IMG/VR virus record: IMGVR_UViG_3300031565_000014
Location: 1-64,000 of that record
Direction: 5' to 3' (one strand)
DNA from: a virus
Length of the DNA stretch: 64,000 bases
Under the pieces are notes generated by a model, which was not told where the DNA came from, searched no databases, and saw only the letters and a list, made by a program, of their open reading frames with translations. Positions 320-32,400 of the stretch are shown here, piece by piece; positions within the stretch are counted from its first letter, which is position 1, and every line of letters begins with the position of its first letter. The position numbers and the translations under genes were made by a program.

Positions 320-708
320 AAAAGTACATAGTGGGACTTATTGTAAGTCTATTTTTAATGGGATGTGACAAAGATGATGTAACACCTACAGCAAATTCTA
401 TGACAGGTATATGGAATATATATGAAGATTATTCTCCTACAAATGGTTCAGGTAATACTGCATTTATCCAGAAAGGTTATATAACTTCTATCACACCTGA
501 AGGGTCAATTGATCTAACGATAAATAATTACCCTTATTCTATAGCTACAGGTAAAATTTATGAACTAACCGGAGGAATTAATGCACAACAAATAGGTGAT
601 GTTCAAATTATTAATAATGATTTTATTATAGTTAGATTGTCTTTTAATGCTATTTACTATGCTCAAGGAGATTATGATTTCTGTAATGCTAAATATAAAA
701 AACAATGA
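316..708 (+). CDS. Predicted lipoprotein (SPase II signal), probably surface-exposed
   Basis: MKK + hydrophobic stretch + lipobox LMG-C, followed by DKDD, which resembles the Bacteroidota lipoprotein export signal. Confidence 0.75.
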   Translation: MKKYIVGLIVSLFLMGCDKDDVTPTANSMTGIWNIYEDYSPTNGSGNTAFIQKGYITSITPEGSIDLTINNYPYSIATGKIYELTGGINAQQIGDVQIINNDFIIVRLSFNAIYYAQGDYDFCNAKYKKQ

Positions 709-1115
709 TAAATTTACTTATAACCCCATTATTTATTTTAATGGGGTTTAACTTAGAATTAACAAAAGAAAATGTATATGAAGCTTGTATAGCATATGAG
801 ATAAAACATCCAAAAATAGTTGCTGCTCAAGCTTATTTAGAAACAGGTAATCTTGAATGTGAAAATTGTTCTTTAGATTATAATAACTTATTTGGTTTTT
901 TTATATGTAAAGAAAGAGATGCAGAAAATAATTGCATAAGTTCTGGATATATCTCATTCGATCATTGGGTGTTTAGTATAGCTTACTATAAGCGTTGGCA
1001 AGATAAACGCTATAAAGGGGGTAATTATTATAAGTTTTTAACTAAAATAAATTATGCTACCGCGCTTGATTATAACGATAAAGTTAAACAACTAGTAACG
1101 CAATATTTTGAATAA
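705..1115 (+). CDS. GH73-family (glucosaminidase) peptidoglycan hydrolase with N-terminal hydrophobic segment
   Basis: AQAYLETG (catalytic Glu), NNLFG, F..W..S...Y and YAT...Y motifs of the FlgJ/glucosaminidase family. Confidence 0.8.
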   Translation: MINLLITPLFILMGFNLELTKENVYEACIAYEIKHPKIVAAQAYLETGNLECENCSLDYNNLFGFFICKERDAENNCISSGYISFDHWVFSIAYYKRWQDKRYKGGNYYKFLTKINYATALDYNDKVKQLVTQYFE

Positions 1116-1188
1116 AAGTTTTAGCTATATAATAAGTTAATTTTGAATTTTAAAACATCTTATAGTTTTATATATCGTATATTTACAT

Positions 1189-1470
1189 ATGTTATATCAA
1201 CTACCAGATGGCAGAACAGTAGAGATAAGTTTAGATGATTATTTAAACTTAGACCATGCTGGTATTCAAAATCTTATGGCTAATAAGTATTATGGAGCAG
1301 AAATAAGAAATCCTTTTTTTAAATCAGCAAGTGATTCAAGAGGGGATAGTTATTTAGAAAAAGAAGAATTAGGTTTTGATGAGGATGATTTTGAAACTAA
1401 AGATGTTAGTGAAATACCATCTGAGTTTAAAATGTTAGATCAAGACTTTGATGAAGACAATGAAGATTAG
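1189..1470 (+). CDS. Small acidic hypothetical protein
   Basis: 93-aa ORF with a D/E-rich C-terminal half, followed by a terminator. Confidence 0.75.
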   Translation: MLYQLPDGRTVEISLDDYLNLDHAGIQNLMANKYYGAEIRNPFFKSASDSRGDSYLEKEELGFDEDDFETKDVSEIPSEFKMLDQDFDEDNED

Positions 1471-1511
1471 TTGAATAAGGGTTAGTTAGTTAATCTTTTA
1501 TTTGTTTGTGT

Positions 1512-1540
1512 GAGGAGGGCTGTAATGGCCCTCTTTTTTT
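1512..1540 (+). terminator. Rho-independent terminator
   Basis: GAGGGC...GCCCTC stem followed by a T7 tract. Confidence 0.8.
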
Positions 1541-1559
1541 GTTATAAAAAAATAAATAT

Positions 1560-2024
1560 ATGAAACAAGAAGCTTATTACAGAGGAAGAAATTCAGAATA
1601 CAACACAAATAATGGTAAACGAGCTAAAGCTCTTGACAGCATTGTTGTAGATTATAGTAAATATCAAAATTTTCTATATAAAAAGGCACTTTTAGGTTTA
1701 AAAATATATAACCAAAATGCCGTTAAAAGAATGAAAGAAGAAGAAATTACTACTATAATACGTAATCAAAAGAAAGCATTACGTGTTATTAGTGTTTACA
1801 AACAGAAAAAAGTTATTGAATTAAGTAATGGTTTATTAACAGCTATGTTTCCTAAAGGAAGAGTTACTAGTGAGCTACTTACACCAGAATTATCTAGATG
1901 GGGCAAACAGTATAAAGTAACGTTAAAAAATGAAGATTTAGGTATAACTAAAACAGAAATTATTAATTTACTTGTTGCTAACAACGTATTACCTGAAGAT
2001 TTTTATGAATTAAATTTAAAATAA
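1560..2024 (+). CDS. Basic hypothetical protein
   Basis: 154-aa ORF with an A-rich leader, in operon context. Confidence 0.7.
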   Translation: MKQEAYYRGRNSEYNTNNGKRAKALDSIVVDYSKYQNFLYKKALLGLKIYNQNAVKRMKEEEITTIIRNQKKALRVISVYKQKKVIELSNGLLTAMFPKGRVTSELLTPELSRWGKQYKVTLKNEDLGITKTEIINLLVANNVLPEDFYELNLK

Positions 2025-2025
2025 T

Positions 2026-2259
2026 ATGAGGGTAGAAGCAGTTTGCAATGGTAAAGTAACTTTGATTATTACTCCGGAAACATCTTTAGATGAAGAAATA
2101 TTAAAATCAATATTACAACAAAAAAATGAGATTGTAGAAATAAGAGGTACAGCAGCTTTAGTTCATAAAACTATAAGTTCTGGTTTATTAATTAGTTCTA
2201 CAGAAAGTAACATAGTGGATAAAAATAAAGATAGTGAAGTAAATGATAGTTTAACTTAA
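2026..2259 (+). CDS. Hypothetical protein
   Basis: 77-aa ORF tightly packed between neighbours. Confidence 0.65.
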   Translation: MRVEAVCNGKVTLIITPETSLDEEILKSILQQKNEIVEIRGTAALVHKTISSGLLISSTESNIVDKNKDSEVNDSLT

Positions 2260-2270
2260 AATATAATAAA

Positions 2271-3083
2271 ATGAATATAGTGGGTCAAGATAAATTAGTG
2301 AAAGAAATAGAAAAAATATTTAGTATTTTTGAAGCATCAGAAGGTGAAATTAAACCGCATTTTATTTTAACAGGGGAAAGTGGTAGTGGTAAAACATTTA
2401 CTATAAATAATCTTTCTGTAAAATACAAAATGAATTTTATTGAAGTAAATGCTGCTCAATTAACTAAAGAAGGTACAAGTGGTAATAGTTTATCTAAAGC
2501 TTTATCACCGTTAGCTAATACACAAAAACAGTTAACTGTTGTATTTGTTGATGAATTTGATAAATTATTTATATCAGGTAATTCAAATGATAGTTCAGCG
2601 CATGAGTCAACAACAGGTGTACAAAATGAGTTTTTAAAAGTTTTAGAATCAAGAACTACACAAGTATTTGGCGATTATGGTAAATATGTGTCTGTACCTG
2701 TTAATAACGTTTTATTTGTGTTTGCTGGTGCTTTTAACAATGAAGAAGACATTACTTTAGATAGATTACGTGAAATAGGATTAAAAACTGAATTTTTAGG
2801 CAGAGTAGGGTTAATTTACAATACTAAACCTCTAACGTTAGAAGATCTTAACAGAATAGTTGATAAAAGTGATTTACTAGATAAATATTGTAAGTTATTT
2901 AATGAAGATTTTGAAAAAGTAAGCATTTATATTAAAGGTTATATTAAGAAGTTTTTTGATAAAAATACTTTAGGAGCTAGAATGATTAACACACTTATAC
3001 AACAATACTTTATAAAAGGTGGTGTTTTAAATATAGATGATGCTAAAGAAGTTACATTTCAAAAAACTTTAAAATTAAAATAA
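2271..3083 (+). CDS. ClpX/HslU-like AAA+ ATPase lacking the N-terminal zinc domain and IGF loop
   Basis: IVGQD, Walker A GESGSGKT, Walker B VFVDEFDK, GVQNEFLKVLE, LFVFAGAF, EFLGRV and LGAR (sensor 2) align with the ClpX core. Confidence 0.85.
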   Translation: MNIVGQDKLVKEIEKIFSIFEASEGEIKPHFILTGESGSGKTFTINNLSVKYKMNFIEVNAAQLTKEGTSGNSLSKALSPLANTQKQLTVVFVDEFDKLFISGNSNDSSAHESTTGVQNEFLKVLESRTTQVFGDYGKYVSVPVNNVLFVFAGAFNNEEDITLDRLREIGLKTEFLGRVGLIYNTKPLTLEDLNRIVDKSDLLDKYCKLFNEDFEKVSIYIKGYIKKFFDKNTLGARMINTLIQQYFIKGGVLNIDDAKEVTFQKTLKLK

Positions 3084-3095
3084 AATATAAACAAT

Positions 3096-3178
3096 GAGAG
3101 GTAGAGTATAATGTCACGGAGGTTGTGTCACCTTATGAAAATAAGTATCTATCGCAGGTTCGAGTCCTGCTACCTCTC
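3096..3178 (+). tRNA. Non-canonical or pseudo tRNA (His-like features)
   Basis: Perfect T-arm GCAGG-TTCGAGT-CCTGC (3154-3170) and acceptor stem GAGAGGTA/TACCTCTC; irregular D-arm and anticodon arm; no encoded CCA. Confidence 0.55.
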
Positions 3179-3197
3179 CTAAAAAAACAAATAAATT

Positions 3198-3284
3198 ATG
3201 CTAGAAAAAGAGTTTATTCCTTATGATTTAACACAAGGTCTTAAAAAACTAATTAAAATTGTTAAATATGAAAAAGATAAGTAA
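3198..3284 (+). pseudogene. 28-aa mini-ORF, probable internally deleted gene remnant
   Basis: MLEKEFIPYDLTQGLKKLIKIVKYEKDK*; its LKKLIKIV segment recurs as the start-less remnant CLRKLIELV at ~3490-3516. Confidence 0.4.
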
Positions 3285-3456
3285 AGATTATTATGAAGGG
3301 TTTTCTTTTGGAATAGCTACAGCTATTTTTACATGCTTGGGTTTTGATCTTTTTAATGAAGGCTCCTGGGCATATTTAGGTATTGTGATGGTTGTTTTAG
3401 GAATATCAAATATTCTTAAAGTTGAATTACTTAGTGATAAATCAGATAAAAAATAA
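3259..3456 (+). CDS. Small two-TM membrane protein (likely start ATG 3268)
   Basis: Two hydrophobic helices: FSFGIATAIFTCLGF and WAYLGIVMVVLGI. Confidence 0.65.
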   Translation: MLNMKKISKDYYEGFSFGIATAIFTCLGFDLFNEGSWAYLGIVMVVLGISNILKVELLSDKSDKK

Positions 3457-3550
3457 AACTTTGACATACACAAAAAATTAAAACTAACTTGTCTTAGAAA
3501 ATTAATAGAACTTGTTAATAAAGAAATTGTAAATTATAGTAAAACAAGTA

Positions 3551-3946
3551 ATGATGATTGAAAAAAAGAAAAAATTATGTGTAGCTTGTGAAAAAGACCA
3601 ATATATTTGGAAAAACTACAAAGGAGATAAATATTGTCAACAATGTTGGTATAAACACAAAGATAATCCTATAAAAAATATTAAAAAAGTATCAGCTAAG
3701 AAACAAAGTTTAGATAATGAATACTCACAACTTAGAAGAATATTCTTAACTAAAAATCCTAAATGTCAAATGCATATTCCGGGTATATGTCAAAATGATG
3801 CCACAGACGTGCATCATATGTCAGGTCGTTTGTGTGATTATCTTAAAATAGAAACATGGAAACCTGCTTGTAGAGCTTGTCATTGTTGGACTGAGGAACA
3901 TCCTGAAGAAGCGCGAGATCTTGGATTTAGTAATACTAAATATTAA
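3551..3946 (+). CDS. Zn-finger + HNH-like endonuclease
   Basis: CxxC pairs (CVAC, CQQC), then C....C...ATDVHH...CRACH HNH-type motif. Confidence 0.7.
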   Translation: MMIEKKKKLCVACEKDQYIWKNYKGDKYCQQCWYKHKDNPIKNIKKVSAKKQSLDNEYSQLRRIFLTKNPKCQMHIPGICQNDATDVHHMSGRLCDYLKIETWKPACRACHCWTEEHPEEARDLGFSNTKY

Positions 3947-4172
3947 AATTATGAATAAAAAGTTACCTGATTTTATACCAGGAGGAGAATTGTGGAGAGA
4001 ATATGGTAAAACATATCAAAACTATAAAATGCCTTTTGGTAAATATAAAGACAGACCTTTAAAAAACGTACCATTCTCGTATTTAGAATGGTTAGAAGGT
4101 GAAAATGTTAATGATAACACTATTAAAAAGTACGTAAATATAATAAGAAAAAAAGCAGGCTTTAGAATATAA
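3921..4172 (+). CDS. DUF3820-like (MPFGKY) small protein (likely start 3951)
   Basis: MPFGKYKDRPLKNVPFSYLEWL signature. Confidence 0.7.
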   Translation: MDLVILNIKIMNKKLPDFIPGGELWREYGKTYQNYKMPFGKYKDRPLKNVPFSYLEWLEGENVNDNTIKKYVNIIRKKAGFRI

Positions 4173-4193
4173 ATAAATTAAATAGTCAACATT

Positions 4194-4748
4194 ATGAATA
4201 AAATAATATATTGTTTTGAAGAAGCAGATAGTACAGAAGAGTGTGTAGAAATTATTAATAACAACTATAAAGTTTCAAATTGGAAAAGAATAAGTAAGTT
4301 TAAACTTCCCGCTGAGTACAGAGATAAAGTACAAGTAAGAGTATTTAGTGATGGTTCTGAAGAGCTTACAGTAGTATTAGCTGAAGAATGTACATATTTA
4401 TGTACTAATCTTAATCTAACTACTTTAAGACCTATAATAGATCAAGTAAATAATCATGCTAAGAATTTTTATACATGGGATTATGGTCAGATTTATTTAA
4501 ACCCTTATACATTAGAATTATGGGTATCCTGTGGTGATGGTGGTATTTTTTATTCTACATTACATTATACACAAATTGTAGGAAATATTGAGAATTATCA
4601 AGATTGTGAGTTTCCAAAGAAAAACTTTGAAGATTTTATTCCTGAAATTAAAAGTACTACATATGAAGCTGAATATTCACCTGAATATGATGGTTCTGAC
4701 GGAGATTGGATACCTATAGGTAAAATAAAAGATATTTGTAATTATTAA
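4194..4748 (+). CDS. Hypothetical protein
   Basis: 184-aa ORF. Confidence 0.7.
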   Translation: MNKIIYCFEEADSTEECVEIINNNYKVSNWKRISKFKLPAEYRDKVQVRVFSDGSEELTVVLAEECTYLCTNLNLTTLRPIIDQVNNHAKNFYTWDYGQIYLNPYTLELWVSCGDGGIFYSTLHYTQIVGNIENYQDCEFPKKNFEDFIPEIKSTTYEAEYSPEYDGSDGDWIPIGKIKDICNY

Positions 4749-6264: not shown

Positions 6265-6689
6265 GTAAATTAGATTGGATTATTTTTGGGGTAGTACTTT
6301 TAGTATTACCCCTTTTGTATGTTGTACTAGTTGCTTTTTATAAATATTTAAAAAAAAAATATAAGTATATTATAAAATTTAAAAAAGTAAGTAAACATAT
6401 ATCTGCAAAAGCTATTACGTCAGACGGTAGTATAATAGTTTTTGAAACAAAGCACGTACAAACTTATATTTATGAAAGAGACAAGCACAATGATTTGCTA
6501 GGACTTTTAAATGATGTTAACGAACACATACTAGATATGGGTGAATTTGAAACAGATGGATTAATGTATGTTAGAATTTCTGATTTAACTAAAAGTCAGT
6601 ATATTAATAGTATAACAAAATCTAGTAATGAATCAGGTTGCTCTTGTGAACAATGCAACTATTTAAAAAATAAATATAATGCAAAATAA
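6261..6689 (+). CDS. Membrane-anchored hypothetical protein (start ATG 6261)
   Basis: MSKLDWIIFGVVLLVLPLLYVVLVAF TM followed by a Lys cluster; C-terminal CSCEQC. Confidence 0.65.
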   Translation: MSKLDWIIFGVVLLVLPLLYVVLVAFYKYLKKKYKYIIKFKKVSKHISAKAITSDGSIIVFETKHVQTYIYERDKHNDLLGLLNDVNEHILDMGEFETDGLMYVRISDLTKSQYINSITKSSNESGCSCEQCNYLKNKYNAK

Positions 6690-6975
6690 CAGTATAGACA
6701 TTGATGAAGAAGTAGATATTGCTGTAGAGGAATTAATTAACTCTTCTTTAGGGCGAGCTATTGTAGTTTATAATGATGATGTTAACAGTTTTGAACATGT
6801 TATATATTGTTTAGTTAAGTACTGCTCTCATACGAGTATACAAGCTGAACAATGCGCTAATATTATCCATTTTAAAGGGAAATGTGATGTTAAAAGGGGT
6901 AATTTAAATAAATTAAAACCTATTCATGAAGCTTTATTAGAAAAAGGTTTAAGGTCAAAAATAGAAGAATTATGA
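6679..6975 (+). CDS. clpS: ClpS N-degron adaptor protein
   Basis: IVVYNDDVNSFEHVI...AEQCANIIHFKGKCDV...L...GL matches the ClpS family. Confidence 0.88.
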   Translation: MQNNSIDIDEEVDIAVEELINSSLGRAIVVYNDDVNSFEHVIYCLVKYCSHTSIQAEQCANIIHFKGKCDVKRGNLNKLKPIHEALLEKGLRSKIEEL

Positions 6976-7872: not shown

Positions 7873-8406
7873 ATGATAGATATTGATAATATAGAGAAAA
7901 AACTTTATAATAAAATTACTAAAACTAATTGGGAGATAATATTAGATCCTTGGTTTAATACAAGAGAATTGCGTAATATTTTATCGTATTTATACGATGA
8001 ATATAAAAAAGGTATTATGTTTGAGCCTTTTGTTAACGACATTTTTAAATCTTTTGAACAATGTAATTATAATGATTTAAAGTGTATACTTATACTAGAT
8101 GATATTAATATTAGTAGTATTACTAACTTAGATAAAGGGACCTTAATTATATCACCTGAGCTAACAAGAATAGTAAACACTCCAGGATCACATATGAAAG
8201 GTTGGTCTAACTTTATTAAAAGTTTACTTAGGCAATTAGACAATACTCCCGGATTATTTTATGTATTTCAGGGAGAAAGATCTGCTAGATATTTTAATTT
8301 AGTAGAACATGACTTTAACCATGTATATAAAGTCAGCAATATTAACCAAGAGTTAATTGATAAAATTAATAATATAATAATTTATAAAAATGATAAAATT
8401 AGATAA
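7873..8406 (+). CDS. Degenerate (predicted inactive) family-1 uracil-DNA glycosylase homologue
   Basis: W..IL...F, P....IF..F..C....LKCILI, GTLII...LT.....PGSH..GW..F and LFYVFQG mirror UNG; the GQDPY and HPSPLS motifs are absent. Confidence 0.65.
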   Translation: MIDIDNIEKKLYNKITKTNWEIILDPWFNTRELRNILSYLYDEYKKGIMFEPFVNDIFKSFEQCNYNDLKCILILDDINISSITNLDKGTLIISPELTRIVNTPGSHMKGWSNFIKSLLRQLDNTPGLFYVFQGERSARYFNLVEHDFNHVYKVSNINQELIDKINNIIIYKNDKIR

Positions 8407-8641
8407 TAAATTTCATTTAGAAAATGATGCTAATCAATGGATATTACATTTTCAAGAAGAGGGTGAATTAAATCCTAAAACAGGTAAAAATACTATAAGA
8501 ACTAATGTCTGGTATTCCGGAACTATAAAGAATTGCCTTAATAGATATATTACAGAAGCTGTTAAACCTTCTAAAGATGTTAAAGAACTTATTAAAAATA
8601 TTAGTAATTTAGAAAAAATTATTAATAATATTAAACTTTAA
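8390..8641 (+). CDS. Hypothetical protein (DUF5405-like pattern)
   Basis: LENDANQWIL...WYSGTIKNCLNRY pattern. Confidence 0.55.
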   Translation: MIKLDNKFHLENDANQWILHFQEEGELNPKTGKNTIRTNVWYSGTIKNCLNRYITEAVKPSKDVKELIKNISNLEKIINNIKL

Positions 8642-8782
8642 GCATTGATTATTACTGCTAACGGTTTGGCATATAAGATTAGGGGAAATTGGCTAACAGT
8701 TTTGATGAGAGGTTGCAAACTCTATTCATTAACACCTTCAGATGGTGACACAACAGCCCCTATTTTTTATCATGAGTACTTC

Positions 8783-8850
8783 TATACCCGATAAGGCATA
8801 AAATGAGTATAAAAGCCATCATTATACCCGAAAAGGTATAATAACGATGG
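8783..8850. repeat. Tandem palindromic motif TATACC-N6-GG(T/C)ATA, two copies
   Basis: TATACCCGATAAGGCATA (8783-8800) and TATACCCGAAAAGGTATA (8823-8840); the second extends to the ATTATACC/GGTATAAT and CCATC/GATGG stems. Confidence 0.75.
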
Positions 8851-8941
8851 GATAAACCAACATTACTTACAACGCCAAAACAAAAGCCGTTTTAATGGCG
8901 TATACACGATGTTGTAAACTGTGCGGATTATTAACTAAAAA

Positions 8942-9148
8942 ATGATGAAGATGGATAAAATAACTGATTATAAAATAAGAATAGGTGATAAATTAGATTA
9001 CGTTGAATACGGAAGCAAAGAGCGATTACCTGTAAAAGTGGTTAATATACTATTTGATGGCTTTGTATTCTTGATTGAATTTAAACACGAAAATGACAGA
9101 GCGAGTGGTGTAACTCAATACCCTGATAAATTAAAGCAAAGGTTGTAG
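8942..9148 (+). CDS. Small beta-rich (SH3/KOW-like) hypothetical protein; cassette-borne
   Basis: 68 aa, IRIGDKL...VKVV; bracketed by complementary attC-like half sites. Confidence 0.65.
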   Translation: MMKMDKITDYKIRIGDKLDYVEYGSKERLPVKVVNILFDGFVFLIEFKHENDRASGVTQYPDKLKQRL

Positions 9149-9309
9149 CATTGTTTATAACTCCAAAACAAAAGGCGTTTTAATTCCTATTTGATAAACA
9201 AACACAAAATTAACAATTAAACACTAACACAGTAGGTAAACATTGACTTAGCTTATTTGATGGCTATTTGATTTATACATTGTTACCCACTTTTAAAATT
9301 ACGGATAAA

Positions 9310-9516
9310 ATGAAAATAATTATTGAAAAAAACCAAAATGAAAGCCAAACACCAATAGTAACAATAGATACTAAAACTTGCTTTTACCCGTACGCCATTA
9401 GAAACGCCATTGAATTAGCTTTGGAACTTGATGGGTATGATAAAGAAACAATAAGAGAAGTGTTTGGAATAATGCCTGACGTTGAATGTAAAGCAGAAAG
9501 CGAGTTCATTGCATAA
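9310..9516 (+). CDS. Hypothetical protein (start ATG 9310)
   Basis: MKIIIEKN...; the upstream in-frame TTG start lies inside the attC-like arm. Confidence 0.65.
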   Translation: MKIIIEKNQNESQTPIVTIDTKTCFYPYAIRNAIELALELDGYDKETIREVFGIMPDVECKAESEFIA

Positions 9517-9531
9517 TAAAAATATAAGTTT

Positions 9532-9594
9532 TAAAAGGTGCTCTGTATGGGTGGAGCCTGAGTTAAATGACAGCAGTAAGTTCGCAGCCTTTTA
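9532..9594 (+). ncRNA. Candidate structured intergenic element (multi-stem)
   Basis: GC-richer intergenic segment; outer stem TAAAAGGT/GCCTTTTA, inner GCTCTGT/GTGGAGC and CTG...CAG. Confidence 0.35.
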
Positions 9595-9610
9595 TTAAAT
9601 AAAAAGAACT

Positions 9611-10114
9611 ATGAAAAAAGAATTAATTGAAGCGTATAAAAATGGATTTATAGAGGGTTCTGTATCTGCTAAAATGAATATGAATCACGATGTCGAAGGA
9701 ATGGCTGAAAGTTATGTTTATTCAGTCCTCCAAAAAGCAAAAGATGAAAACAAACAAAAGTTTTTAAATCTTGTAGATGGTAAAGATGAAACATTCTTTT
9801 CGGATTTACGGGATAGTCCCCAACAAGGCGGTAAAACCTCAGAGTTGGAACAACCTAAAGACGTTGAAGAGTTAGTGCAAAAAATCTATGATAAATGGAA
9901 TCATAAGTGGAGAGAATCTGCAATATCAGCAGAGGAATCAATCAAAGAAGCTATAAAAGATGCCCTAAACTTAGCCAATCAAAGAAGTGTTTTGGATGAA
10001 TATTTCTACACGGATTTAATGAAGCTAATCAATGAACATTGTAAGAATGGATTAAGCAAACCTGACTTAGTGTCAAAAATGAAGTATGCAACTCAATCGT
10101 GTGTTATGAGCTAA
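9611..10114 (+). CDS. Mosaic hypothetical protein
   Basis: 167-aa ORF composed of short helical segments. Confidence 0.6.
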   Translation: MKKELIEAYKNGFIEGSVSAKMNMNHDVEGMAESYVYSVLQKAKDENKQKFLNLVDGKDETFFSDLRDSPQQGGKTSELEQPKDVEELVQKIYDKWNHKWRESAISAEESIKEAIKDALNLANQRSVLDEYFYTDLMKLINEHCKNGLSKPDLVSKMKYATQSCVMS

Positions 10115-17903: not shown

Positions 17904-19205
17904 ATGGAAGATATACAATCAAGTATATCTAGGGCAAGTAAAAGACTGCAATTAACGCAGTCTTTTTACGGCTTATTCTTAAATATGCTTAACAAACGTT
18001 GGAATGATGAAATATCAACAGCATGTGTAAGTAAGAATAGTTATGCTCTAGGTTTTCAATTAAATATTAATCCTGTTTTTTGGAATAGTCTTAGTGATGA
18101 TGAACAAATAGGTGTTTTACAACATGAATGTATGCACATTTGTTTAATGCATTTATTTATGTGGGATGACTTTTCTGATAAAGAAATAGGTAATATAGCT
18201 GCTGATATAGAAATTAACCAGAATATAAAAAAAGGTTTACTCCCGGCAGACACTATGAGTGTTAATGAATTTAAAGAGAAATATGGACCTATTAGAGAAT
18301 CTATAATAAAAGAATGTACAGAAGTTGGTATGAGTAAGCCTAAAATAATGGAGCAACTTGTTAACCACATACCCACAAGAGGTGTTTTCTTAGAAGATTT
18401 TCCTGAACTAAACATGGAACCTAATAAAGGTGCAAGATACTATTATAGCAAATTAATAAAAGCTAAGGAAGATGGTGATTGTCCAAATTTAAATGATTTA
18501 CTAAGTCAAGGTGGCCCAACATCTTTTGAACATGATCTATGGTCACAACTTCAAGAATTAGATGAAGGTAGTAAAAAAATGTTACAAGCTCAATTAGAGC
18601 ATGAACTTAAAGAAGTTGCAGATAGTATTACTAAATCTAGAGGTACTATACCTGGTGAAATGCAAGGACTTATAAAAGCTCTTTTGCATACTGACCCTCC
18701 TAAGTTTGATTGGAAAGGTTACTTAAGAAGATTTTTAGGTAACTCTATTGATTATCATAGAAAATCAAGCAGAAGAAAGCTAAATAAAAGGTTTAACATG
18801 AATCCTGGAAGAAAGGTGAAACGTAAAAAACATATTTTAGTTGGTGTAGATACGTCGGGTTCTGTAAGTGATAATGAACTAAAAGAATTTTTTCATGAAA
18901 TAAATCATATCTATAAAGCTGGTACTAAAGTCACTGTTGTTCATTGTGATACTACTATTCAGAAAATAGAAGAATATAAACCCGGTATGGAGTTTAAAGT
19001 ATATGGTAGAGGAGGTACGTATTTTGAGCCTGTATTAGATTACTATAACGAACATTCTAGTGAATATACATGCTTAGTTTATGTTACAGATGGAGAAGCT
19101 AATGTACCACCTAGACCGAAAGGTAGAATGTTATGGGTATTATCATCACAATCTAACATGAATGAAGAATTAAAACAAACAGGTCAAGTAATTAAATTAA
19201 ATTAA
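17904..19205 (+). CDS. Metallopeptidase + vWA domain protein (DUF2201-like)
   Basis: HECMH (HExxH), NIAADIEIN, MIDAS DTSGS, GRGGT and VTDG motifs. Confidence 0.85.
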   Translation: MEDIQSSISRASKRLQLTQSFYGLFLNMLNKRWNDEISTACVSKNSYALGFQLNINPVFWNSLSDDEQIGVLQHECMHICLMHLFMWDDFSDKEIGNIAADIEINQNIKKGLLPADTMSVNEFKEKYGPIRESIIKECTEVGMSKPKIMEQLVNHIPTRGVFLEDFPELNMEPNKGARYYYSKLIKAKEDGDCPNLNDLLSQGGPTSFEHDLWSQLQELDEGSKKMLQAQLEHELKEVADSITKSRGTIPGEMQGLIKALLHTDPPKFDWKGYLRRFLGNSIDYHRKSSRRKLNKRFNMNPGRKVKRKKHILVGVDTSGSVSDNELKEFFHEINHIYKAGTKVTVVHCDTTIQKIEEYKPGMEFKVYGRGGTYFEPVLDYYNEHSSEYTCLVYVTDGEANVPPRPKGRMLWVLSSQSNMNEELKQTGQVIKLN

Positions 19206-29445: not shown

Positions 29446-32400
29446 TTATCTCAGATTATCAAAAGTAGCCTGATCTCTAATACCCTTACCTGGATCAACA
29501 GCCTTACCTCTAAAGTAAAATGATTGTAATAAATGATTATAAAACTTAAAACTTTCTGCTTTCTGCCAAGCAAAAGGTCCTATATCTTTCTTATAATATG
29601 CTCTTTCGTCACCAATACCCCATCTAACTAAATCCTGAGTAAGCGTAAATAACTTATCTACAGTTGGTCCAAATATAACAGAAGTGTTATCTTTAAAGCT
29701 AAGCATTTGACTTATACCAGAAAGAGAAGGTGAGAAAGCTTCATTCTCACTTTTAACAAGCATTAATTGATAAATTACGTGAGCATGCATCCAGCCTCCC
29801 ATATTGAATGATGGTCTATTAGGATCATCAGATACCCAAGGTAGAGGTAATGGTCCTGATAAATTTCTCACTTTCTTAAATCTATCTTTATCATCATCGT
29901 CATAACCTAATAAGAACATAGATGCTGTAAGCAATCCTATAACAGCTAATTCTGCAGTTACAGCTTTAAGTGCTGATTTCTCTTCTTTAGTTAAACTATT
30001 TACTTGACCATTTCTTAAACCATTATACAATACAGCAAGGCCTACTAAAGCTTCTGCATAGTACCCTGTGTGCATATCGCCGTAAGCTAAATCAAACGTA
30101 CCACCTGCTTTTCTTTCTCCAGTAACTGCTGTAGATCCTAAAGCTTTCCAATAATTAGATATTTCAGGATCTACACTTGCACCATTAAGCCTTCTTCTAT
30201 ACATGGAATAAGCAAATTTTCTTAATGATATAAATGCTTTCCATCCTAAGTTTCTATCAACAAGTGGTTGTGAAAATTTAGAATAAGTACCTGCAGTACC
30301 TTCCAATATAGTCTGCATTTTAATTTTATATTCATTAAATTTTCTACCTCCTATAGCCCATTCTTTATCAACTATATTATCTTTTAATTGTATTTGACCA
30401 TCTTTAATTTCATAAGCGTCCTTAAGTTCTATTTTACTAATACTACCGTCTTCTTGAGTTTGCTCTACTTTCTGATTAATAAGTAAAGCTCCAAATAATT
30501 CAAAAGCACCTTCTTGTTCCATTAATTTTCTAAATGAAGTCATCCACGTTAAGTTAATAACGTCCCTTGTAGCGGAAGAAGTAGCGTATTCACCTAATTT
30601 AGATGAAAATCTATCTTCCATAAAATCAAATACTTCTAATAATTGAAAATTATAACTTTTAGCACCAACTTTGTATCTTTGTTTACTTATTTCAGTCATT
30701 AACTGCCAACCAAAAGCTTTACCTTTAATCATAGCAGTAGGGCTTACGTCTACACCGGCTATACCATTAATAAAATTATGATATGTTTGAGAAAATCTGT
30801 TTTTAATATCTGATGGAAAATTAAGACCTAAGTAAGATCTAGATGTTTCAGATATCATAGTATTAAGCGCCTTAATTAACCCAGGGTTATTAGCGCCCCA
30901 TCCTGCAACATTTTGCCCATAAAATTCTCTTTCTGTTAAAGCTTTAATCACTTTAGCTCTTGTAGTCTCACCTTTTTTATTGAATAATCCCCAAGCTCTT
31001 TTAGATTTTTTACCGCTAATTTCTGAAGATTCTTTAGCGTTAAGTTCATCTACAAGACTTACTAAAGATTGCGCAACAGGGTTGATCTTAATAAGTTCTT
31101 TTTGCTCATTAGCAGAATTCATATATTTTAGAGTAGACTGTATAACATCTAAAGATGTGATGTCTAAACCTATATTAAATGTACCTTTAATTACTAATGA
31201 TCTAGATGGGTTCATTTGTTCTGCTAAATTTAAAAACATGCCAACATCTTCTACATCGCTTAAATCATTAGGGTCAATATCATCTAAGTTTAAACCTGCT
31301 TCTTCAATATCATCTTTTTGAGCTTTAAACATCGCTGTAAACTGCTTACCTACAGTCTTAAGCTTAAGCTTTAAGTTTTCTAATTCATTTTTAGTAAAAT
31401 CTTTTGTCTGTAAAGTCTCAGTTTTATCTTTTCTAAATCTAGCTATTTCATTACCTAATTTAGCAGAATCTTCTAAGCCTTCTTGTGCTTTATAATGAGC
31501 TTTACGTAAAATTTCAAGAATCCTAAACATGTCAGGATCACTTTGTTTCATTTTTTCGTAATCTTTGTTGATGTACCTATCCCAACCTTCTAAAGACGTA
31601 TCCATGTCTTCAGCAGCTTTAGGTAGCCAATTACCCCACACATCTACTGTTTCACCTACTATACGTTTATTTTTATAATTTTCTTTAACTTCCCTAGTAA
31701 AGAATTCAAATATAGGTTGGCCAGGAATAGTCTCTATTGTATTACCTGATTCATCAAGTATTTTAATATTACTTAAATATTTAGAATTATTAGGTACGTT
31801 ATTACTCCATATAGAAGTTCTTAAATAAGCTGTAACCTCATTTTTATAAGAAATTCCTTCTATTTCCTCATCTTTTACTATTTTTTTACTAATATGAGAT
31901 CTTTCAAAAAATTCTTTAAACTCCTCACTTTGATTTATGTAATATCTATATATATTCTCACTAAGAAATTTGTCAGCATTAGCTTTAGATAAACTAGCTG
32001 TTTTTAAAGTAGATTTTAAGTGTTCACCATTATCTATATCGTGAATCCAAGTATTCATAATATCTATATAATCAGTAGATGCTTCTCTTGTTGTAATATT
32101 AGATATATTTTTAAATACTTTACCTATTGCTTTCCTTATACTTAAAGGAACTGGATTGTCTTCTTTTTTAGTGTTAAGTTCTTCTAATCTTGAAATATTT
32201 TCTTCAGTTAGATCTTCCTCCTCATATGAATTTAATATTGAATACTCTCTAGATTCAGCAGGTGTTAATCCTGATATACCTGGAATATTGTCTCTAAGAT
32301 CTAATATTTTTTGATCAACGTCTTTAACTTTAGTAATTAAAGTATCATTCATCTCAGAAGCCTTAACTTCACCGTTTTTATCTTTATTAGAAGTTTTTAT

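Follow-up and report, generated by a model that had tools for sequence, protein, structure and literature searches.

A probable decayed cassette array in a virus contig and its relatives among Bacteroidota and their phages

Integrons are the textbook gene-capture device of bacteria and are defined by one integrase family: a classical integron comprises an IntI integrase, an attI site and cassettes bounded by attC sites, which are imperfect palindromes with AAC...GTT outer arms. PeSLs, the promoter-stem-loop cassettes of T4-type phages, are regulatory motifs whose action is ascribed to homologous recombination. Here we analyse a region of the virus record IMGVR_UViG_3300031565_000014 that a model's reading of the letters alone (the sequence-only reading) had described, at 8642..9300, as an integron-like attC cassette array in a crAss-like phage, its single-gene cassettes captured by single-stranded DNA (ssDNA) hairpin recombination through a host or distant tyrosine recombinase. 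The window, that is, the whole stretch of DNA analysed, comprises positions 1-64,000 of this 72,772-base record, for which CheckV gives a completeness of 61%. We conclude from comparative sequence that 8642-9516 is probably a short, decayed array of mobile cassettes, with two cargo genes of 68 amino acids (aa) each (gene 1 and gene 2), belonging to an integron-like system of Bacteroidota and phages served by an Xer/XerA-like recombinase. Comparison with relatives established a site family with covarying hairpins, complementary cassette ends, a strand bias, a linked recombinase and changing gene neighbourhoods. Below, Lnnn denotes homologous or site-bearing loci and Gnnn bacterial genomes; features lie on the + strand unless stated.

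Parts of this picture are in print. According to the accessible text of the IntegronFinder 2.0 paper, integrons are nearly lacking in Bacteroidetes, which at first gave nothing but integrase-alone elements (In0) and later a single complete integron, in Salinibacter; the available part of a review lists Bacteroidota among the phyla with integrons. In the accessible portions of Qi et al. (2023; PMC9892861), CALINs, clusters of attC sites without an integrase (in the IntegronFinder sense, two or more attC sites that the attC covariance model detects with no integrase close by), are described in 17 phages, including the virulent phage P12002L with a methyltransferase-encoding CALIN; two sites were reported in P12002L with classical attC tools and were read as bacterial integron components on phages. 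The occurrence of attC-like cassettes in a virulent phage that has no integrase is therefore already published, as is that of methyltransferases on phage cassettes. Our literature search, which covered few subscription journals, returned no description, for Bacteroidota or for phages, of attC-like arrays with a linked Xer-like recombinase, and none of a separate site family with cassette-specific outer stems, of whole phage platforms or of mirror-image versions.

A family of hairpin sites with complementary cassette ends

On its best-folding strand, an intact site of the family reads ATT-n6'-AAC, a 5-nt spacer, a hairpin, a 3-nt spacer and GTT-n6-AGT. The hairpin is a GTATAWGG...TATAC stem, often with a GTTTTAAT loop, and the commonest form of the whole is ATT-n6-AAC-GCATT-GTATAAGGTGC-GTTTTAAT-GCACTTTATAC-GTT-GTT-n6-AGT. 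Searching viral contigs with a degenerate pattern of the site gave 101 matching stretches, and the 80 loci for which DNA was retrieved contained 70 distinct sites. The family spans more than 100 viral contigs, Tenacibaculum phage JQ, Polaribacter phage P12002L and Bacteroidota chromosomes. Measured from AAC to GTT, phage sites are 44-62 nt long and bacterial ones 43-128 nt, and their inner stem covaries. This agrees with attC architecture, which has outer arms R''/R', inner arms L''/L' and a variable loop within tens to ~140 nt; in the window, S1 alone keeps part of the fold. Phage hairpins (67 sites) had 97% of their cells paired, with 54 double-change cells versus 15.9 in shuffles, a value reached by none of 500; bacterial hairpins, in an alignment that was fitted to the model, had 98.5% paired and 150 double changes versus 38.7. 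The consensus has an invariant G.T pair in the stem and unequal 5- and 3-nt spacers, and its stem shows no consistent bulged base. Many bacterial sites (L134, L172, L195, L139, L203 and others) have longer covarying stems with tips of the CCCGAAGGG, CCCGCAGGG or GACGWTAGGAAG type.

The two ends of a cassette are complementary to each other. Among the 69 sites of the viral-contig scan with enough downstream DNA, 30 had an exact reverse complement of their own GTTn6 within 1.8 kb downstream, where 200 permutations of the arms among sites gave 3.3 on average and never more than 8, and this far-end complement was preceded by (A)TT in 27 of the 30 exact cassettes. A looser search gave 61 exact and 63 one-mismatch cassettes. 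The two arms of one integrated phage site matched no better than random (2.09 versus 2.05 of six positions). In bacterial arrays, own-end matching averaged 4.43 of six (14 of 21 at five or more) versus 1.9 for arms of the same site. A cassette's own ends can pair over 12-14 bp, and the full stem can form only when the cassette is circular or looped out.

Departures from pairing pointed to one strand. Within hairpins there were 21 G.U and at most one A.C, and among own-end mismatches 19 of the G.T type versus 4 of the A.C type. Folded as DNA, the same strand was the more stable in 61 of 67 phage sites and 70 of 74 bacterial sites. Phage genes lie sense to this folding strand (the longest open reading frame, ORF, in 30/30 cassettes; 22/22 intervals), whereas genes of bacterial arrays lie antisense to it in 19 of 21 intervals, with the strand bias unchanged. 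Since the bias is the same whatever the direction of the genes, a role at the level of DNA is favoured over one in RNA.

The limits of the mobile unit were read from six aligned gene-2 loci, which are homologous from just after the preceding AAC as far as the cassette's own AAC and unrelated further out. These breakpoints put the boundary just after AAC, in the arm that precedes the hairpin when the gene-sense strand is read 5' to 3'. The unit, as sequence comparison defines it, runs spacer-hairpin-spacer-GTTn6-gene(s)-n6'AAC, so that a site travels upstream of its gene. The hairpin class mostly travels with the downstream gene (L030/L037, L076/L097), and the same cassettes occur in different contexts in relatives, as expected of mobile units.

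The linked recombinase and the cargo of the cassettes

The site pattern also matches many Bacteroidota genomes. At L249, a locus in one Flavobacteriales chromosome, an array adjoins a 366-aa tyrosine recombinase whose best model is the XerA-type NF040815 (228 bits) and whose closest structural relative is the XerC-like 4a8e (160.9 bits). Against the integron-integrase model TIGR02249 this enzyme matched in two stretches at 201 bits, under the 265-bit cut-off, and residues 187-244 of the IntI4 chain (2a3v) had no counterpart in it. The same two-stretch pattern was found in four phage enzymes (267-280 aa), in a second bacterial enzyme (376 aa) and in two further genomes. An integron integrase was ruled out as the linked recombinase because the IntI-specific insert, an extra domain between the catalytic patches, is missing. 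Bacterial array-linked enzymes often carry an N-terminal extension of ~90-110 aa. In a quick midpoint-rooted tree, control Xer proteins formed one clade (support 99), and the array-linked and phage enzymes fell outside it.

Linkage between enzyme and sites was seen from both directions. In 20-kb segments around array-recombinase homologues, 14 of 20 contained site-model matches (26 matches), versus 0 of 20 around XerC/D-like paralogues from the same genome set. With the four phage enzymes as queries, 491 places with recombinase relatives were found in viral contigs (IMG/VR); we scanned 78 of the best 80, chosen by recombinase homology alone and leaving out the query's own locus (L298) and one lying in the L297 contig (L361). 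These 78 loci held 81 site matches, all 81 on the recombinase strand and 80 upstream of the recombinase. A site match was present in 41 of the 52 loci with at least 2.5 kb of upstream DNA, the nearest at a median of 1,032 nt. In L292 the final cassette ends with GCAGCTAAC, 46 nt upstream of the recombinase start codon. Starting from sites instead, a PF00589 tyrosine recombinase was present in 6 of 48 site-bearing virus records, within ~5 kb of a site in five of the six. The tyrosine recombinase that the sequence-only reading had placed in a host or at a distance thus has a counterpart tightly linked to arrays in some phages and Bacteroidota; the enzyme is no integron integrase, as it is without the IntI insert.

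Two genomes gave separate observations on recombinases. A true integron-integrase match, at 292.5 bits above the cut-off and with two internal stops, lies at G010:C1:5051780-5052523 (Saprospiraceae), ~300 kb from a family site. Contigs C5 and C6 of G009 (~700-714 kb; Ichthyobacteriaceae) hold many array-type recombinase copies, several with in-frame TGA, near a family site.

The main ORF encodes a DNA-modification enzyme in 17 of the 30 exact cassettes (10 N6_N4_Mtase, 3 C5, 2 D12-class, 1 MT-A70 and 1 Mom); 12 others have no Pfam family and one a weak PTH2 match. Phage cargo consists mostly of orphan DNA methyltransferases, presumably directed against restriction, together with small ORFs like the two in the window. 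Methyltransferase cargo is shared between recombinase-bearing platforms and recombinase-less arrays, at up to 80% identity. Unrelated C5, Mom, D12 and N6_N4 enzymes in L035, L070, L074, L076, L082, L097 and L103 end in the same tail, ...(Q/T)(T/S)LF-stop, which suggests that a conserved nucleotide element near the cassette 3' arm is read as the end of these frames. At L194 2062-2821 (Winogradskyella) there is a phage-style cassette with its methyltransferase sense to the site, which may be prophage or the result of phage transfer.

Cultured phages carry the family as well. Phage JQ (MT002873.2) has an array of at least eight cassettes at ~350-4700 and no annotated integrase, and P12002L (NC_028924) has sites on the minus strand around methyltransferase genes. 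Our own family model found several sites in each of these phages and none that was significant in the window. The P12002L_attC1 primer, as given in the available part of PMC9892861, corresponds to a family site (L127, minus strand, ~30000-30064).

The array in the window

A string check located all eight strings quoted in the sequence-only reading, each at its coordinates or, where it had none, in the region named. The elements of the array are as follows.

8642..8662, + strand: orphan cassette-end arm, GCATTGATT then ATT-ACTGCT-AAC, immediately 3' of the stop of an 83-aa gene (8390-8641)
8651-8662: left arm ATTACTGCTAAC, as quoted
8663..8860, + strand: decayed stretch without ORF, with a left half-site GGTTTGGC... 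(of the L013/L014 kind), an inverted repeat and two TATACCCGAWAAGGYATAA copies
8678-8685 and 8757-8764: inverted repeat pair, ATTAGGGG and CCCCTATT, as quoted
8861..8922, + strand: site S1, with both arms, a hairpin remnant and TATAC; top covariance-model match in the window
8861-8873: left arm CATTACTTACAAC, as quoted
8901-8919: right arm TATACACGATGTTGTAAAC, as quoted
8942..9148, + strand: gene 1, 68 aa, predicted cassette cargo, with homologues in the same frame of sites in L003 and L004
9148-9161: left arm GCATTGTTTATAAC, as quoted
9150..9161, + strand: the gene-1 cassette's own R'' arm, ATT-GTTTAT-AAC
9162..9293, + strand: site S2, a hybrid; its left half is a duplication (9163-9184), followed after a long AT-rich spacer by TATAC (9274-9278) and then the R' arm GTTACCCAC (9282-9290)
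9274-9290: right arm TATACATTGTTACCCAC, as quoted
9310..9516, + strand: gene 2, 68 aa, predicted cassette cargo that has lost its own right end; homologues at 13 loci, identity up to 91%

Site S1 has the R'' arm ATT-ACTTAC-AAC (8862-8873), a hairpin remnant (8874-8900) with the family's CGTTTTAATG loop, which occurs once in the 72.8 kb record, then TATAC (8901-8905) and the R' arm GTTGTAAAC-TGT (8911-8922); the 5' half of the family stem (GTATAWGG) has been replaced or lost. Its DNA fold (8861-8925) scored z -2.3 on the + strand and -2.7 on the - strand against shuffles. The R'' arm at the far end of gene 1 (9150..9161) pairs with GTTGTAAAC (8911-8919) at eight of nine positions, the mismatch being G.T on the + strand, and a simulated circle junction of the gene-1 cassette folded with z -3.95. 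The complementarity noticed earlier, of GTTGTAAACTGTGC at 8911-8924 to 9148-9161, held at 11 of 14 positions. Site S2 is near-identical, from TATAC rightward, to the site upstream of gene-2 homologues in L007-L011; its left half is a copy of the odd left half of S1, so that only its right half is kept. That the window's sites are truncated or hybrid, as first described, was thereby borne out.

The duplicated core is likewise real and lies within a 36-nt direct repeat (8861-8896 and 9149-9184, 86% identical), whose copies, 288 nt apart, bracket the gene-1 unit (span 8861..9184). By the homology breakpoints the gene-1 unit would be 8874-9161, in place of the 8912-~9200 first given; its length, 288 nt, equals the repeat spacing. 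Within the window, the 22-nt core matched twice at up to three mismatches versus 0.00 expected, and there are two matches in the whole 72,772-base record. The 36-nt duplication appears lineage-specific, since the exact 22-nt core had no match in the viral contig collection. In all 72.8 kb of the record the + strand contains four instances of TATAC-N3-6-GTT, two of them in the array region, so this grammar is local and not a genome-wide intergenic one.

To the left, the orphan arm at 8642..8662 is 81% similar to the gene-1 end (repeat family D7); no upstream partner GTTAGCAGT for it was found in a site context at up to two mismatches. A 49-aa ORF is listed at 8645-8794. The two TATACCCGAWAAGGYATAA copies (8783-8801 and 8823-8841; two matches versus 0.11 expected) resemble the hairpin tips of bacterial sites. 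On present comparison, the grammar of the array exceeds chance through its relatives, the statistics of the window alone being weak.

Gene 1 has no Pfam family and no PHROG family, its 42 homologue clusters are all unnamed, and its matches in Atlas, at or below 0.91, have no common family; tblastn of both 68-aa proteins against GenBank phages gave no match. Three close homologues were found in viral contigs (L003, L004 and L005). In L003, L004 and the window, gene 1 is framed by TATAC-n3-GTT-n6-(A/T)GTGCGG upstream and TAGCATT-n6'-AAC downstream. The n6 differs among them (GTAAAC, ATATTT, ATTATT) and each pairs with its own far end, fully or in all but one base: GTTGTAAAC/GTTTATAAC in the window, GTTATATTT/AAATATAAC in L003 and GTTATTATT/AATTATAAC in L004.

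Gene-2 homologues show the same frame with other arms. L007-L011 have GTTACCCAC upstream and GTGGGTAAC downstream (GTGGCTAAC in L009), L012 has GTTGTGCGCA and TGCGCACAAC, and L013 and L014 have GTTACCTGC and GCAGGTAAC; the L019 homologue is truncated by the contig end. In the window, homology to these relatives ends ~12 nt before the gene-2 stop codon, and no GTGGGTAAC was found within 3 kb of the gene at up to two mismatches. The L012 array comprises three consecutive cassettes, each with perfect 10-nt own-end complements. None of the three outcomes named beforehand as refuting the sequence-only reading was seen: paired ends were retained in two of three close gene-1 homologues and eight of 13 gene-2 homologues, gene order varies, the genes sitting in different neighbourhoods in relatives, and the motifs recur as gene-flanking sites in other records. 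The frames of the relatives bear out the earlier view of the two small genes as cassettes framed by structured recombination-type sites, with mutually complementary ends.

Two observations on gene-2 loci stand apart. A cassette at L012 1341-1615 lies behind a minimal site of ~25 nt, AAC-ggttggcggc-TATAC-gta-GTT. Around the homologues in L015-L018, the motif AACCTTTAA(C/A)ACCAA is repeated directly before successive start codons.

The array lies among small + strand ORFs that precede a replication module (DnaB-like helicase, primase, DNA polymerase), in DNA whose GC content is slightly elevated from ~8.6 to 10.1 kb, and the window also contains giant minus-strand ORFs of 800-4041 aa; judged on gene architecture alone, the crAss-like label fits. 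Neighbouring genes include a ClpS-like Clp-protease adaptor (6679-6975, +; PF02617, 50.8 bits), a 167-aa ORF just right of the cassettes (9611-10114, +) with a weak PHROG 1314 match (E 7.7e-4), and a 433-aa protein (17904-19205, +) with a full-length match to PHROG 1314 ('HNH endonuclease', 217.9 bits). ARAGORN found no tRNA or tmRNA gene in the window.

Neither megablast nor blastn matched the region to any GenBank phage, and the 177-aa, 167-aa and 379-aa neighbours, used as queries for an empty-site comparison that would show cassette gain or loss, found no close relative of this phage. Sequencing runs were screened as Logan contigs; in those of the three runs, possibly the source, that contain the stretch, no solid circular cassette junction was seen. 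Possible variant joints 8929-9142 (X6, side 21) and 9176-9601 (X5, depth 2.7, side 29) and a possible back-joint 10749-8615 (X6, depth 2.2) fell below the tool's reliability marks and are not used as evidence. Contigs of X1, a possible source run, end at ~8914-8941, exactly at the S1 right arm, and at 9776-9848, which may reflect population variants or an assembly effect alone.

Weighing the explanations, and known systems

How the reaction proceeds, where exactly the strands cross over and where the enzyme comes from are inferred from sequence, as follows. ssDNA-hairpin recombination would be the process: an Xer/XerA-like tyrosine recombinase would recognise a folded single strand, and strand exchange at or just after AAC would insert or excise cassettes, as IntI does at attC. 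Some phages encode the enzyme at the 3' end of the array and many Bacteroidota at the head of a chromosomal array. In chromosomal platforms the recombinase would come first with cargo antisense to the folding strand, and in phage platforms last with cargo sense to it. The window cassettes would reflect past capture, probably by a recombinase acting in trans from a host or a co-infecting phage, and would now be fixed. The window copy looks like a decayed, recombinase-less remnant, a fossil of an old capture.

Several observations weigh against this account. The argument is wholly comparative and no recombination event was observed. The window's sites are degenerate, the first-ranked match of the covariance model (8862-8922, +) reaching merely 12.5 bits (E 2.4), and neither 9149-9296 (DNA, z +0.09/-0.49) nor 8651-8775 (z -0.11/+0.19), which includes the ATTAGGGG/CCCCTATT pair, folds better than shuffles. 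No tyrosine recombinase was found in the 72.8 kb record (61% complete), and none is present in 42 of 48 site-bearing phage records (10 of the 12 that are at least 90% complete) or in JQ and P12002L. The outer stem of an integrated site is only the 3-bp AAC/GTT. The gene-1 homologue in L005 and the gene-2 homologues in L015-L018 have no site frame, and the L012 cassette at 1341-1615 (68-aa ORF) has a direct repeat, TACGCATAAC, at both flanks and no own-end complements. Across 1.14 Mb of bacterial loci, the only cargo shared with phage cassettes is the L194 methyltransferase locus. In L024/L068/L082, L051/L055/L063 and L098/L100, genes are combined in more than one way with hairpin classes and arm types (L024 and L082 share the gene with different hairpins; L051, L055 and L063 share arms and leader with different genes), so ordinary homologous recombination inside the conserved module must take place as well. 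Sites that are otherwise identical vary in the 5-nt spacer, which tracks neither neighbour and so does not mark the crossover point. According to the accessible part of PMC9892861, P12002L_attC1 was the sole site of six without verified recombinants with class 1 IntI1 in Escherichia coli, and P12002L_attC2, a different-looking site, did recombine with IntI1.

These mixed combinations would suit a different explanation, in which the conserved module is a PeSL-like regulatory cassette shuffled by ordinary homologous recombination with no dedicated recombinase. PeSL cassettes of T4-type phages are in print (PMC2839356 and PMC4122927, as far as their available text goes), the spacing between our module and the phage gene downstream of it is constant and includes a conserved leader, AGT(A/G)CGG-ATTAA, and most site-bearing phages lack a recombinase. 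A regulatory role leaves unexplained, however, the n6 complementarity of a cassette's own ends, the opposite orientation of genes to sites in bacterial arrays, and the clustering of sites in one orientation beside one recombinase family. A sigma-70 scan, which does not cover Bacteroidota or phage-polymerase promoters, gave 16 promoter-like sites versus 16.6 expected and no terminator at the sites on the + strand. We consider this explanation unlikely. Pairing might instead act in RNA, the 5' and 3' ends of an mRNA forming a stem for processing or protection and the intergenic hairpins being RNA elements; the favouring of G.U-type pairs on the phage sense strand and the invariant G.U in the stem are what it would predict. 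Yet the same bias is seen in the 19 bacterial intervals with antisense genes, Rfam at gathering thresholds had no match in the whole window, and the linkage is to a DNA recombinase, all of which make an RNA role improbable.

The pairing of IS608 guide and target sequences resembles such unit ends, and another ssDNA enzyme, such as an IS200/IS605-type Y1/HUH transposase, could in principle move units that are cut after the same word (AAC) on both sides and have a hairpin close to one end, next to a sequence able to pair with the other end. Against it, a search for PF01797 (Y1_Tnp) in 18 site-bearing virus records, of which 13 reach 90% completeness or more, gave no match (the search for HUH enzymes did not extend to hosts), and the tight linkage is to a tyrosine recombinase; such an enzyme is very improbable here. 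Chance resemblance in AT-rich intergenic DNA would account for the low covariance score in the window and for the two of three stretches that fold no better than shuffles. It would not account for the flanks of both genes being homologous to intact sites around their homologues, nor for the excess of the 22-nt core, and we regard it as hardly credible. We therefore retain the reading of a decayed array of mobile cassettes as the probable one.

Beyond the window, we put forward tentatively, as a serious possibility, that a second integron-like system, independent of IntI, operates in Bacteroidota and their phages with an Xer/XerA-like recombinase, ssDNA sites with cassette-specific outer stems and mirror-image platforms, in which phage platforms trade anti-restriction methyltransferase cassettes among unrelated virulent phages and recombinase-less arrays are the fallout. 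If so, a parallel capture system with a different recombinase would be widespread in Flavobacteriia, Cytophagia and relatives and would also exist as a self-contained phage platform. It would explain the exchange of methyltransferase and small-gene cassettes among virulent marine and soil phages without lysogeny. Its signature (model R1 plus own-end pairing) could be used to find phage accessory genes, including likely anti-defence genes, and nature would thereby provide a collection of structure-specific sites whose outer stems are programmable. For the window the message is modest: two small genes would have been acquired as cassettes and are now probably immobile.

Among known systems, Xer/XerA recombinases with their dif-type sites are the nearest sequence and structure relatives of the linked recombinase, and differ in that the housekeeping paralogues of the same genomes form a separate clade without sites nearby. 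To our knowledge, PeSLs have neither own-end complementarity nor a linked recombinase. They are alike, in the accessible parts of PMC2839356 and PMC4122927, in being short conserved intergenic modules that flank small variable early genes in hyperplastic regions with gene shuffling. The phage CALINs of PMC9892861 are the same phenomenon, P12002L_attC1 being a member of our family; the available text of that paper makes no mention of a distinct family of sites, of covariation between a cassette's own ends, of a linked recombinase other than IntI, of phage platforms that carry the recombinase or of inverted gene orientation.

Likeness to integrons extends to arrays of mostly one-gene cassettes between imperfect palindromes with AAC...GTT outer arms; to a cassette start that complements the arm at the cassette's other end (eight of nine positions in window gene 1, the far end of gene 2 being lost); to one strand folding better than the other; and to a tyrosine recombinase at the same end of the array relative to that strand. 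The sites are nevertheless no canonical attC sites, contrary to the name first given to them: the R' arm fits GTTRRRY in 15 of 67 phage and 2 of 74 bacterial sites, and the R'' arm fits RYYYAAC in 4 of 67 and 2 of 74. Only AAC and GTT(A/G) are conserved in the arms, which beyond these letters are cassette-specific where integrons have the RYYYAAC/GTTRRRY consensus. The family differs from integrons also in its linked enzyme, XerA/Xer-like and without the IntI insert; in an R stem of 12-14 bp that is missing from integrated sites; in its invariant G.T pair and 5/3-nt spacers in place of a consistent bulged base; and in phage cassettes that carry their gene on the folding strand, with the site upstream.

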